Positions 10,534 to 46,312 of a stretch of 64,000 bases of DNA are shown here, piece by piece. This DNA is from a virus: positions 32,001 to 96,000 of the IMG/VR virus record IMGVR_UViG_3300025687_000024. One strand, 5' to 3'. Every line of letters begins with the position of its first letter. Positions within the stretch are counted from its first letter, which is position 1. The position numbers and the translations under genes were made by a program. The notes under the pieces were generated by a model. That model saw only the letters and a list, made by a program, of their open reading frames with translations, was not told the DNA's origin and did not search any database.

Positions 10534-10969
10534 GGGGGTCGTCCTCCAGCGCGGAAGGGTAGAGGTAAGCGACCACGCGTGGTCCTTGTGAGTAGGCTTC
10601 CCGCTTATGCAGGAGAACGTCGAAGTTATTCCGGTCGCTCAGGCCCACCAGCTTGGCGATGCAGTCCTCTACCAGCTTGATGAGGTTGGACACGTCGACG
10701 TTCTTGTAGGGGTGCTTGGTCTTCGCCTTCACGCCCCAGGAGAGGTTGTAGAGGTCTTCGGGGGCGATGTAGAACCAGACCTCGAGGGTGTAGGCCTGCT
10801 CCCGCTCTACTCGGATAGCGAGGAAGTCCTTGGTGGACATCCCTCCTTGGGCGGCGAGGAAGGCCTGCCTCCAGTTCCTACCTGCCGTGGTGAGGATCTT
10901 GCGTCCCCGGGCCACGGTGTAGAGCTTGTTGACGGACACGGGGAGGGCGGGGAACTGGAAGCAGTACAT
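10511..10969 (-). CDS. rusA: RusA-like Holliday junction resolvase
   Basis: P.SVNKLY...ILTTAGRNW and DVSNLIKLVED match the RusA catalytic D..N..K...D motif. Confidence 0.75.
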   Translation of the reverse strand: MYCFQFPALPVSVNKLYTVARGRKILTTAGRNWRQAFLAAQGGMSTKDFLAIRVEREQAYTLEVWFYIAPEDLYNLSWGVKAKTKHPYKNVDVSNLIKLVEDCIAKLVGLSDRNNFDVLLHKREAYSQGPRVVAYLYPSALEDDPHEAGAAG

Positions 10970-11592
10970 CAGCGGGGCCTACGCCAGCGCTGGGGGTTGA
11001 CGACCGGCGCGGTGCGCTCCTGCCGATCCTGGTTCTCGACGTCCTGGGCCTTCCTGGTCTGCTCACGGGAGATGAGGTTGAGGGAGCGCTTCATCTGCTC
11101 GAACCGCTCCTGCGTCTTGCGCATGTAGACCTCCATGCGCAGCAGGCCAGCGTCGGCGGAGACGAAGCGCTCATCCATGTCGATCTTGGCGTCCAGCATG
11201 GCCGCTGCGATGCCGCAGTCCTCCTTGTAGTAGATCTTCAGCGCACTCTGAAGCACCCGGACAGTTCGGGACTGGACCAGGTGCATGGCCTTGGAGCGCA
11301 TGTACTCGGCGGACAGGTAGTTGGTCCAGCCGCTGGCGTAGCCGAAGAGCTTGCCCAGTGTGACCAGGTCGAGCTCGGTGACGTCGGCGGGCACGATGGG
11401 GTCCCCGTTCTCAGCGAACTCGATGTGGCCCTCGAGGCCAGTCGGGAGCGCGGGGATGGGGAGCCTGTCGCTGATCGCACGTTCGGCCAAGCTGCGGTCG
11501 ACATCGTCGATGATGTTGTCGTAGATGTCGATGAGCTCGTCGATGCGGACGTTGCTCGGGACGGGGAACGCGGCACCGCCTGTGTGGGACAT
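10969..11592 (-). CDS. Hypothetical helical protein (possible recombination mediator, UvsY-like)
   Basis: Start MSHTGG with GAGG RBS and TGATG overlap. Coiled C-terminus, located among recombination genes. Function is a guess. Confidence 0.45.
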   Translation of the reverse strand: MSHTGGAAFPVPSNVRIDELIDIYDNIIDDVDRSLAERAISDRLPIPALPTGLEGHIEFAENGDPIVPADVTELDLVTLGKLFGYASGWTNYLSAEYMRSKAMHLVQSRTVRVLQSALKIYYKEDCGIAAAMLDAKIDMDERFVSADAGLLRMEVYMRKTQERFEQMKRSLNLISREQTRKAQDVENQDRQERTAPVVNPQRWRRPR

Positions 11593-12911
11593 CAGAACCT
11601 CCTCTGCCGCTTGTACGCAGCGGGCTTGCAGGTCCACATGTAGGGGCACTCCCCGCACTTGGACTTGATGTCGATCTGCGGGGGGAGCAGGCCCTGTTGG
11701 ACCGTCTTGATGATGTGGGCGCAGCGGGTGGCTGTCTTCTTCCAGGACACCCGGTTGTGCGGCGTCACGAACTGCTTCATGACGCCCTCTTCCTTGTTGA
11801 CGTAGAGGTAGAGGACGCGCTCCAAGCCGAGCAAGGCGCAGTAGATGTTGGCCTGGTCAACATGCTCGCGCTTCGCCTTGGTGAACTTCTTGTAGCTGCT
11901 GCCCCCCGCACTCTTGATCTCGTAGCCGAGCACGTCTTCCTGCCCGTCACAGTGCCCGGTGATCTTGAGTTGCTCGTGCTGGACACGCACTTCCTCCTGG
12001 AAGGCGTCTCCCTTGGCGATGGCCAGGGCCATCTGCACGATGTCGTGGAGCGCGTGCCCGGCGTTGAAGATGCGGCGCAGGTGCGACGAGATCTGCCCCA
12101 TCTGACGGATGCCCATGAGGCCATAGGCGATGCGGCGGTCGCAGGGCGTCATGGAGAGCTCGGACGGATGGATGCAGTGCGTAGCCCGCCCCGAGTCCTT
12201 GAAGTTCAGGCTGAACAGGTACCTGTCGAGCTCGATGATGATGTCGGTGGTGGGCACCGCCCGGATGCCGTTGCTCGGCCAAGGGTCGGGAGGGCCGAAG
12301 CGGTCTGCATCACACTTGGTGGCGTAGGGGCAGGCCGCGCAGTCGTTGTCGGACGCTGTCCCGCCGGGGAAGCCCTCACCGCGCCAGAGGCTCGCCAGGT
12401 AGGCAGGTACCTTCGCCACAGCTTTCCCGGCCTCGTCGATGTCCGTGAGCGTCCAGGCTGACCACTTCTGCGTGTTGCGGTCCACCAGGATGACGATGAC
12501 TGCCTCCGCGCCGAGCATGTGGGCGCGGGCCGCTGCGATGAGCTTGGAGCGCGCAGGGAACTGGGGGAACACCCGGGTGGACTCGTGGGAGAGCATCACG
12601 GGAAGTCCGTCGAGGTAGCCCAGGTGCTGTACTTGTACCCCGGAGTACAGCGTAGGAGCTGCGCGAGAGAAGCGGGTGGGGAAGCACGCGGCCAGGTAGC
12701 GCTGCACGTGCTCCCCGAACTTGTACTCGTAGAGCCGCAGCAGGACCTTGGCGGGATCCTCGAGGCGGTCGGGTTCTTCCCCGATGAGCTGTAGGTAGAG
12801 GCGCCAGCTGCACGGCGTCTTGACGACGTCAGCGACCTCTACCTCTTGGGGGTAGCTGCCGATGCGGCTCAGCACCTGCTCAACGGCTGCTACTGCGTCC
12901 ACTGTCTGCAT
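11592..12911 (-). CDS. Cas4-like / PD-(D/E)xK exonuclease with two tandem Fe-S domains
   Basis: C-terminal domain HPSEL..TPC, GHCDG, EIKS, QANIY, CGECPY..C. N-terminal copy TPC...CAACPYATKC. Confidence 0.75.
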   Translation of the reverse strand: MQTVDAVAAVEQVLSRIGSYPQEVEVADVVKTPCSWRLYLQLIGEEPDRLEDPAKVLLRLYEYKFGEHVQRYLAACFPTRFSRAAPTLYSGVQVQHLGYLDGLPVMLSHESTRVFPQFPARSKLIAAARAHMLGAEAVIVILVDRNTQKWSAWTLTDIDEAGKAVAKVPAYLASLWRGEGFPGGTASDNDCAACPYATKCDADRFGPPDPWPSNGIRAVPTTDIIIELDRYLFSLNFKDSGRATHCIHPSELSMTPCDRRIAYGLMGIRQMGQISSHLRRIFNAGHALHDIVQMALAIAKGDAFQEEVRVQHEQLKITGHCDGQEDVLGYEIKSAGGSSYKKFTKAKREHVDQANIYCALLGLERVLYLYVNKEEGVMKQFVTPHNRVSWKKTATRCAHIIKTVQQGLLPPQIDIKSKCGECPYMWTCKPAAYKRQRRF

Positions 12912-13491
12912 GGAATCTCCTGAAGGCGGCTTCCGACATGACCACGGCCCGGGGTTCCAAGGGGATCTCCAAGGGCTCGGGGTAGTCGTGTCGTGCGAAG
13001 GTCACACCCCCGCGGGTGAGCGGGAGGGCCCCGCGGTCGGGTAGGTGCCCCTCCAAAGCTGCAGCTCGGGCGAGGACGATGGTGATGTGGGGGTGCTGGG
13101 TGAACACGACACGCAGGAGGGGTTCCTCGCCGGCGGCGAGGGCTCCTTGGACGAAGTCAGTCCAGGTGGAGCCCTTCAGCCGGTAGCGGTCGCTGCGAGT
13201 ACTCTTGTTCTCGACGCGCCACGCGCCGAGCGTCCGGACGTCGCCGTCCATGTTCTCGGCGCCAGAGCGCAGGGTCTCTCGGCCTCCAACCAGGGCGGCA
13301 GCTCCCTTCTCGGTAGAGCGCCAGGCCTGCTTCTTGAGGTGCTTGGGTTGTGCCCGCTTCTTGCGTGGGCAGTCGTCGGCGTGGTCGATCCCGTCCAGGA
13401 TGTTGGCGGTCCTGTTCTTCAGGACGCGCTTGACCCGGACGGGTCCCTCGCGGCCGCACAGTAGGCAGCGGCTCTGGCGCCAGTCGCTCAT
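12880..13491 (-). CDS. Hjc-like PD-(D/E)xK endonuclease/resolvase with N-terminal Zn motif
   Basis: TEK.AA..VGG....SGA...GDV......ENKST and CLLC...HADDC. Confidence 0.65.
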
Positions 13492-45760: not shown

Positions 45761-45801
45761 CTCCTGTTCCGGGGGCTCTGTAGTGTGACGCTCGCCGAGT
45801 G

Positions 45802-46236
45802 CTACAGCGCCTGGAGCTCGGCCTGGGCCTCGGGGGCCTCCTCGGCCTTGGCGTTGGCCTTGGCCTTGCCGACCTTGGAGCCGACCGCGAAGCCGATGCC
45901 GCCGCCGATGACCAGCGCCGTGGCGCCGACCAGGTAGGTGGCGGGCTCGTTGCGGGGGGTCCAGGAGCGCTTGCCGTTCTTCCAGCGCTTCACGTCGCCC
46001 TCGGTGGGGACGATCTCGATGGCCTCGCCGGCCTTGAGCTCGGCGGGGATGCCCGTGGTGTTCTTCTTGTCGCTCATGTTGGAGTCTCCGTGGGTGGTCC
46101 CCTGGTTCTCGAGCAGATGGATGATGCGGTCCAGCTTCGCGACCGACTGCGGGAGCGCCCGCAGTGCGGCAGGAAGATGCTCCGCCATCAACCGATCCAC
46201 CTGGGCAGCCGGGGGGACGTTGGTCTTGTCGGACAT
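45802..46236 (-). CDS. Single-TM membrane protein
   Basis: GGAGG RBS. TM segment YLVGATALVIGGGIGFAVG. Possible second start at MSDKKN. Confidence 0.6.
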   Translation of the reverse strand: MSDKTNVPPAAQVDRLMAEHLPAALRALPQSVAKLDRIIHLLENQGTTHGDSNMSDKKNTTGIPAELKAGEAIEIVPTEGDVKRWKNGKRSWTPRNEPATYLVGATALVIGGGIGFAVGSKVGKAKANAKAEEAPEAQAELQAL

Positions 46237-46284
46237 GCTGCCTCCGTGCAGCTCGAGCGTGGGTGTTCTTCCTCGCTCACAGAG

Positions 46285-46312
46285 CTTATAGAGGCAAAGC
46301 GTTGATTTTTTT
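46285..46312 (-). promoter_or_regulatory. Candidate phage promoter A7-N16-ATAAG
   Basis: AAAAAAA-TCAACGCTTTGCCTCT-ATAAG in an intergenic gap. Confidence 0.55.

Follow-up and report, generated by a model that had tools for sequence, protein, structure and literature searches.

The stretch of DNA analysed here (the window) comprises 64,000 nucleotides, bases 32001-96000, of a 110,689-bp linear IMG/VR phage contig of 66.9% GC. Several of its minus-strand genes are preceded by copies of the pentamer ATAAG, which we interpret as the -10-like box of a promoter specific to this phage lineage. Our own gene calls, based on GC content at third codon positions (GC3) and on codon usage, place about 118 genes on the contig and leave 4% of its sequence intergenic. 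The plus strand encodes the portal, a fused beta-beta' RNA polymerase (RNAP), a baseplate-hub-like protein, the large terminase, the major head protein and the baseplate wedge, and the minus strand carries a replication and recombination module and, outside the window, a second block of small genes (genome 98905-110685). A megablast search with 20 kb against phage records returned zero matches. The genes and sites of primary interest are listed below in window coordinates, with scores from a position weight matrix (PWM) built on the contig copies.

30280-36390, plus strand: gene for the fused beta-beta' multisubunit RNAP, 2036 aa, with Pfam domains Rpb2_6 and Rpb1_1/2/4/5.
8722-25828, minus strand: replication/recombination module (helicases, DnaB-like, DnaG-like, PolA, UvsX-like, Cas4-type exonuclease, RusA-like), predicted to be served by ATAAG promoters.
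30235-30270, minus strand: candidate promoter divergent from the RNAP gene, with GGAAG (-35-like), a TTC patch and CGCATAAGG (-10-like, A at 30246); the best site, 30.0 bits.
25865-25900, minus strand: candidate promoter heading the replication block, CGCGCATAAGG; predicted start G at 25865, first gene TTG at 25828; 25.8 bits.
46278-46313, minus strand: candidate promoter in the 75-nt gap before gene 45802-46236, with GAAAAAAA (-35-like), a TTTG patch and CTATAAGC; predicted start G at 46278; 20.0 bits.
19326-19361, minus strand: candidate promoter inside the DnaG-like primase gene, ACAAAAA followed by GTTCTGCGATAAGG; predicted start A at 19326, next gene 19137; 20.6 bits.
10597-10632, minus strand: candidate promoter inside the RusA-like gene, GGAATAAC followed by TTCTCCTGCATAAGC; predicted start G at 10597, next gene 10533; 20.6 bits.
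3637-3641, plus strand: the sole plus-strand ATAAG, 32 nt before gene 3673, lacking a -35-like box and a start purine; below 8 bits, status ambiguous.

The five minus-strand copies, which read CTTAT on the plus strand at 10604, 19333, 25872, 30242 and 46285, are the window's only minus-strand occurrences of ATAAG and lie exactly where a first-pass annotation of the window had located them, 71, 196, 44, 40 and 49 nt, respectively, from the gene starts at 10533, 19137, 25828, 30202 and 46236. The start at 25828 is a TTG following AGGAGG, and that at 30202 a GTG following GGAGG. The A-rich elements described for four of the copies (AAAAA-N16, AAAAAAA-N16, GGAA-N16 and AATAA-N17) were found at the reported spacings, and the T-rich patch said to lie between them and the pentamer is present, reading TTTC or TTC at -8 to -5 relative to the A of ATAAG. 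At the 30242 site, the predicted start is a G at 30235 preceded by T, and the downstream gene is a 42-aa acidic open reading frame (ORF). Alignment of the contig copies yields cTTTC-N3-(G)CATAAGG and, 5 nt further on, TG. One copy, at genome position 102681, is doubtful, since it overlaps a TAA stop and lacks the TTTC patch, yet it has GAGAA at -35 and an ATG at the start position. The primase copy had also been noted for its rare codons, and their frequencies per 1000 are indeed low (AAA 0.5, TGT 0.8, TCT 2.8, ATA 0.3, AGG 4.7, ATT 1.2); rare codons occur in the RusA-like gene's copy as well (AAT 1.0, GTT 2.9, CAT 1.7). Because both intragenic copies (19333 and 10604) are spelled with codons among the rarest of the genome, a constraint other than coding can be argued for these sites.

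Across the whole contig, ATAAG occurs ten times on the minus strand and once on the plus strand, and seven of the ten minus-strand copies are intergenic (binomial p = 3e-8), 18-119 nt ahead of minus-strand gene starts. The bare pentamer is not over-represented, with 6 occurrences in the window versus 14.7 in shuffled sequence. The enrichment upstream of gene starts, which had been set beforehand as a check on the promoter proposal, was borne out: ATAAG is the top 5-mer before minus-strand genes (6 versus 0.06 expected, p = 4e-11), ranking above the Shine-Dalgarno word. In two complete relatives, too, it is the most enriched 5-mer upstream of same-strand genes (p = 1e-21 and 9e-20). The PWM returned nine sites of at least 20 bits, the next best scoring 15.7 bits, and the same scan, plus strand included, found no degenerate copies lacking an exact ATAAG above background.

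Within genes, the pentamer is avoided. Relative to codon-shuffled versions of the same genes, the contig carries 3 sense and 0 antisense intragenic copies (18.7 and 6.1 expected), and the complete relatives G019 and G021 carry 2 and 0 (16.3 and 6.9 expected) and 0 and 1 (19.5 and 5.5 expected), respectively. Sense-strand depletion is thus about 6- to 8-fold or more, and nearly no antisense copies are left, a pattern that selection against spurious initiation would produce.

To define the geometry of the element, we pooled 43 sites from three high-GC genomes and counted positions from the A of ATAAG. AA is found at -21/-20 in 18 and 14 of the 43 sites, against a background of about 1, and G at -23 in 23; immediately before the pentamer, G at -2 and C at -1 are present in 31 and 29 sites, respectively. 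Position +11 is a purine in 42 of the 43, mostly preceded by T or another non-A base. If +11 is taken as the transcription start, the A of ATAAG falls at -11, its G at -7 and the upstream box at -34 to -30, which is the layout of sigma70-family promoters; on this numbering, used from here on, the TTTC held in the spacer of this contig's clade lies at -19 to -16 from the predicted start. A second box is present 16-18 nt upstream of the -10 hexamer, as in TGCAAA-N17-GGTATAAG of the relatives G017 and G010, and the site statistics, from which the start itself is deduced, place a purine about 7 nt downstream of a -10 element with A-11. A T at -7 is a hallmark of primary-sigma promoters. The ATAAG sites have G there, in all sites of all genomes examined, in agreement with the earlier remark that the final G of ATAAG replaces the last T of a sigma70 -10 box. 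These alignments strongly support the identification of ATAAG as the -10-like box of a two-part promoter, composed of G(C/A)AA(G/T/A) at about -34 to -30, a spacer of ~17 nt, (G)(C/T)ATAAG(G) at -13 to -6 and a purine start.

The element is conserved in uncultured relatives. A search for IMG/VR loci with a single protein yielded zero relatives, and an alignment query then fetched 80 loci. In 65 of 78 loci, the 200 nt preceding the polymerase ATG contain an ATAAG on the opposite strand, where a rough estimate from base composition predicts about one locus in eight by chance. These loci share the context GG(T/C)ATAAG(A/G)A-N3-TG and, about 17 nt before it, an A-rich word (TGCAAG, CGAAAG). The closest relatives, with a 62% identical polymerase and 47-49% GC, carry the same extended word, TTCTCGCATAAG, as the 67% GC phage studied here, and its retention despite the gap in GC argues that the motif tracks phage ancestry and not base composition; judging by GC, the hosts of the uncultured relatives probably differ. 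We read four complete relatives in full (G019, G021, G017 and G010). G019 (67.8% GC) holds 18 copies of ATAAG, 16 of them on one strand, with 13 of these 16 intergenic and 14 placed 18-55 nt ahead of gene starts, and G021 (67.3% GC) holds 20, of which 17 lie on one strand, 16 of them intergenic. PWM hits on the two strands number 20 versus 1 in G017 (49% GC) and 29 versus 4 in G010 (56% GC), against about 1 per strand in shuffled sequence.

The same element was identified in cultured phages. In Salmonella phage Arash (OQ632216), the polymerase is encoded in two pieces, gp206 and gp216 (33.5% identity), directly after the portal gene as in the contig. The polymerase strand of Arash has a single GGTATAAG and the other strand 30, the corresponding counts for a control word being 2 and 3. 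The Arash copies that we checked lie in intergenic gaps before opposite-strand genes and are followed by N5-TG. In Vibrio phage D69, TTTCTG(C/T)TATAAG-N5-TG is found at equivalent places. Arash and the Vibrio phages D69, D148 and D181 hence resemble the contig in their polymerase (30-34% identity), in their sigma factor (28%), in the portal-then-RNAP gene order and in the common motif, and differ from it in that the polymerase is split in two genes, a second sigma gene is present and the -12 base is T, versus C in this clade. Promoters are nowhere mentioned in the Arash paper (PMC10585845), and we found no published promoter analysis for Arash or for Vibrio phages D69, D148 and D181.

The polymerase and its putative specificity factor were then characterized. 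The NADFDGD motif is invariant in the polymerase alignment, and the protein belongs to the lineage of phages with a fused beta-beta' RNAP (mReC, PMC7481178; Arash-like). Fused homologs of ~2050 aa are common in metagenomes, the closest metagenomic relatives having 63% identity; Weinheimer and Aylward (PMC7481178) describe this kind of lineage, without promoter analysis. A sigma70-family protein was located outside the window, among virion-type genes:

G000:13219-13944, polymerase strand: gene for a sigma70-family protein of 241 aa.

The Pfam domain Sigma70_r4 scored above cut-off in the genome search, with weak r2 and r3 matches, and the protein matches the PHROG_351 sigma factor family (E = 1.9e-10); against NCBIfam, it obtained only distant sigma matches and no subfamily. 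A profile of 19 homologs retrieved only sigma factors from PDB, the best being RpoS (1.3e-12) over regions 2-4, and an AlphaFold model (predicted local distance difference test, pLDDT, 81.5) had sigmaA and sigmaS chains as top Foldseek matches. The sigma protein was detected in 18 of the 30 relatives searched, and in eight of the nine among them that are at least 90% complete. Both the RNAP and the sigma gene are sited among portal, baseplate, terminase and head genes. Opposite to the virion genes, on the other strand, the ATAAG promoters head the replication module and small, putatively early genes.

In Arash, the sigma homolog is gp10 (28% identity, E = 2e-13), also sited among structural genes. 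Virion mass spectrometry in that phage detected gp206 (beta) as the most abundant protein, with 3516 spectra, together with 1210 spectra for gp216 (beta') and 467 spectra, at 100% coverage, for gp10; the helicase gp217, adjoining the RNAP, is abundant as well (PMC10585845). The Arash authors offer early transcription or co-purification as explanations (PMC10585845).

The orientation and position of the sites, their two-box geometry, their conservation in 65 of 78 loci, their strand-biased occurrence in 20-30 copies in Arash and in complete relatives of 49-68% GC, and their avoidance within genes strongly support the terms promoter and phage-specific. The first-pass annotation had proposed early promoters for the phage's own RNAP. 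The promoter and phage-specific parts of that proposal stand on this evidence; reading by the phage's own RNAP and early timing are plausible, given that virion genes surround those for RNAP and sigma, that the homologous polymerase and sigma were detected in the virions of Arash, and that host-type promoters are present on the other strand. The proposal had missed the sigma70-family protein, encoded outside the window, and the sigma-type pairing of -35 and -10 boxes in the motif. We therefore favor, with a probability of roughly 0.6, the interpretation that the ATAAG sites are lineage-specific promoters of the sigma70-family type, read by the phage sigma and most likely by the virion-delivered phage polymerase; the enzyme, the start site and the timing are inferred. 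Mechanistically, region 4 of the phage sigma would contact the -35-like box and region 2 the ATAAG pentamer, with A-11 flipped out, while the sigma would most likely be bound to the fused beta-beta' polymerase. Polymerase and sigma would be expressed together with the virion genes and, by analogy with Arash, be packaged and injected; in the infected cell they would initiate early transcription, the strategy of N4 and phiKZ. Transcription of the replication module and the small genes could then proceed without the host, and the host polymerase may serve the virion strand in an N4-like plan. A fuller version of this scheme, in which a single-chain RNAP and a private sigma, its -10 pocket shifted from T to G at -7, constitute a self-contained, virion-delivered machine serving some 20-30 promoters per genome, with ATAAG purged elsewhere and the virion genes left to the host polymerase, is put forward tentatively, at somewhat less than even odds.

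Several observations weigh against the favored interpretation. Several contig copies have a weak -35-like box or one displaced by 3 nt, those at genome positions 104109 and 105153 have none, and at the 30242 site the GGAAG lies 3 nt closer. The contig is about 65% complete according to CheckV, so that promoter counts are lower bounds. No homolog of the alpha subunit scored above cut-off with Pfam families in five genomes, and the sigma could partner the host core instead of the phage polymerase. The sequence (C/T)ATAAG matches TATAAT at 4-5 of 6 positions and has a correctly spaced upstream box, making weak use by the host holoenzyme possible. Finally, the Arash virion proteome comprises 116 proteins, metabolic enzymes included, and its authors point out that abundant intracellular proteins may co-purify (PMC10585845).

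In the least improbable alternative, which we nevertheless consider unlikely, the host core RNAP would be guided to the ATAAG promoters by the phage sigma, in the manner of T4 gp55 and SPO1 gp28/gp34, while the fused enzyme transcribes something else. Takeover of the host core by a phage sigma is well known (PMC7824862), the protein encoded here is conserved and has regions 2-4, and an alpha partner for a phage core was not found in the search described above. Yet sigma and fused polymerase co-occur across the lineage and are both abundant in Arash virions, and 5-mer enrichment on the other strand revealed no second conserved promoter class that the phage polymerase might use instead.

Recognition by the host holoenzyme alone, which would treat the sites as near-consensus promoters through its primary sigma or an alternative one such as sigma28, is in our estimation improbable. 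Host polymerase often serves early phage genes, and the sites share with the sigma70 consensus TTGACA-N17-TATAAT not only most of the hexamer but also boxes 17 nt apart, A-11, a start about 7 nt past the hexamer and, presumably, a reader of the sigma70 family. They depart from it in G-7 instead of T, in GCAA or GAAA instead of TTGACA, and in their strand- and module-specific distribution. G-7 is invariant in every genome examined, over a range of 44-68% GC and with hosts as dissimilar as Salmonella and Vibrio, the extended word varies with relatedness among the phages and not with GC, and ordinary TTGACN-N17-TAnnnT promoters lie on the other strand of the same genomes. By sequence, the closest known consensus to the ATAAG promoter is that of sigma28 (FliA/WhiG, group 3), (-36)TCTAAAG(-30) ... 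(-15)GCCGATAA(-8) (PMC12784957). The two have in common ATAA at -11 to -8 with a flipped A-11, an A-rich -35 box ending in AAAG or CAA(G) at -33 to -30, and equal box spacing, and the phage sigma, with ~240 aa and regions 2, 3 and 4, also resembles this group. The GCCG portion of the sigma28 box is, however, absent, its place being taken by (T/G)CGC in the contig and GG(T/C) in relatives. The upstream half of the phage -10 element reads (C/G)G(C/T), and G-7 and G-6 are conserved in the phage sites. Nor is the phage sigma a FliA/WhiG protein: it scores 17.2 bits against TIGR02479, versus a cut-off of 189.6, and its profile matches FliA in PDB at E = 4.7e-4, versus 1.3e-12 for RpoS.

We give equally little credence to reading of the motif by the fused polymerase alone or with a non-sigma factor, as in the phiKZ and AR9 non-virion RNAPs (gp68/gp226), with the sigma-like protein otherwise employed. 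The core geometry A(-11)NNN-N6-T(-1)R(+1) is that of AR9 late promoters, and the start TATG, found in many relatives, is that of the phiKZ late motif (PMC7598289); the 30242 site reads ATAAGGACTATG. The late promoters of those non-virion enzymes (TATG or AACA-N6-T A/G) have no -35 element, whereas the sites described here have a position-specific -35-like box at sigma70 spacing, which is what a two-domain sigma reads, and, while phiKZ-type phages are devoid of sigma, the sigma gene is conserved in eight of nine near-complete relatives. The comparison extends to the early promoters of phiKZ/AR9-type jumbo phages and of the N4 virion RNAP, which are likewise phage-private motifs near -10 before early operons in phages with the RNAP gene among late or virion genes (PMC7598289). 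The polymerase is also present in virions of the relative Arash (PMC10585845) and, as in N4, early and late genes occupy opposite strands. Unlike the present case, the polymerases of those phages operate without a sigma70-family factor or a -35 box (PMC7598289), and N4 employs a single-subunit enzyme and hairpin promoters, as opposed to one fused, cellular-like beta-beta' chain and a bona fide sigma. A non-promoter function, whether as an operator for a phage regulator, as a signal for termination or RNA processing, or as a target of host restriction that the phage avoids, is highly improbable. ATAAG is avoided on both gene strands, as restriction targets can be, and strong hairpins precede three copies; yet the motif is asymmetric, has two boxes at promoter spacing and always faces the gene that follows, at a distance of 18-55 nt from the gene start and ahead of the ribosome site, and restriction is not expected to yield the same avoided word in phages of very different hosts.

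We also considered the plus-strand reading of the site beside the RNAP gene, CTTATGCG, as a promoter of that gene. It was rejected on two grounds: at least eight of the ten copies would be antisense to their gene blocks, and the RNAP ATG of relatives lies anywhere from 13 to ~160 nt away, whereas the divergent ORF keeps a promoter-like distance.

A literature search for descriptions of a promoter of this lineage, or of TATAAG phage promoters, returned nothing relevant. To our knowledge, the multisubunit phage polymerases studied so far (phiKZ, AR9, crAss-like and P23-45) work without a sigma70-family factor, from promoters that are short or obscure. In the widespread, mostly uncultured lineage considered here, a fused beta-beta' polymerase of cellular type, a genuine sigma and an easily recognized two-box promoter occur together, which offers a direct handle on how sigma specificity can be re-tuned at -7 and -35. 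With this motif, early transcription units can be annotated automatically in the genomes of hundreds of metagenomic phages, and the system is testable at once in a cultured member, Salmonella phage Arash. The purge of ATAAG from coding sequence is in addition a clean case of selection against spurious promoters.

Besides the ATAAG class, the window contains three candidate promoters of the host type, all located between genes and two of them ahead of head-module genes, and the acidic ORF that diverges from the RNAP gene:

47066-47095, plus strand: host-type candidate TTGACG-N18-TACACT, heading the plus-strand head-gene block.
55438-55466, plus strand: host-type candidate TTGACT-N17-TACGCT, before the 310-aa gene at 55503.
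21631-21659, minus strand: host-type candidate TTGACG-N17-TAGAGT, 83 nt before the DnaB-like gene.
30074-30202, minus strand: very acidic 42-aa ORF (20 D+E, 1 K+R), divergent from the RNAP gene and predicted to be served by the 30242 promoter.

Across the three high-GC genomes we counted 13 matches to TTGACN-N16-18-TAnnnT, of which 11 are intergenic; most lie on the polymerase/virion strand. Few as they are, these matches show that the genomes possess, side by side with the ATAAG class, a separate set of ordinary promoters of the host type. A simple scan of the right-hand 14.7 kb for sigma70 promoters and terminators detected nothing above shuffled sequence. A further element, TTTTCGCTATGATAGG (L085:4003-4040, minus strand; genome ~100003-100040), lies 20 nt before the ATG of a 365-aa gene with a weak match to a clamp-loader PHROG. 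It carries a TTTCGC patch like that of the ATAAG promoters, but its hexamer is the canonical TATGAT, and it could be a hybrid or a host-type promoter.

For the product of the acidic ORF, a role as a DNA mimic or in host takeover is conceivable. At the same locus, as judged by eye, a handful of relatives (L009, L047, L051, L053, L050 and L040) also encode a small acidic protein, which has an LF/LW motif.

Outside the window, three ATAAG promoters (L085:8118-8180, 9158-9225 and 9724-9790, minus strand), which are three of the strongest copies in that region, are each immediately preceded by a perfect G+C-rich hairpin of 13-14 bp with a 4-nt loop. The hairpins (z = -2.8 to -5.0) are not followed by a U-tract. 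Such a hairpin ahead of a promoter resembles a terminator-then-promoter layout, in which the hairpins may act as terminators for the phage polymerase.

The strand block that holds the sigma gene and virion genes also encodes a SNF2/RapA-like helicase (L083:6372-8147, plus strand; Pfam SNF2-rel_dom, E = 7e-18). The protein adjoining the sigma gene (L083:12677-13219, plus strand) begins with ...FEDELEKIA..., a sequence absent from the sigma itself and from the N-terminus of the RNAP. Lastly, selfish elements seem to insert preferentially in the polymerase gene: many RNAP homologs (P0067, P0086, P0090, P0092, P0106, P0117 and P0118) reach 2400-2900 aa and contain LAGLIDADG, intein or homing-endonuclease Pfam domains, and in Vibrio phages D181 and D148 the RNAP gene is split by a homing endonuclease gene.

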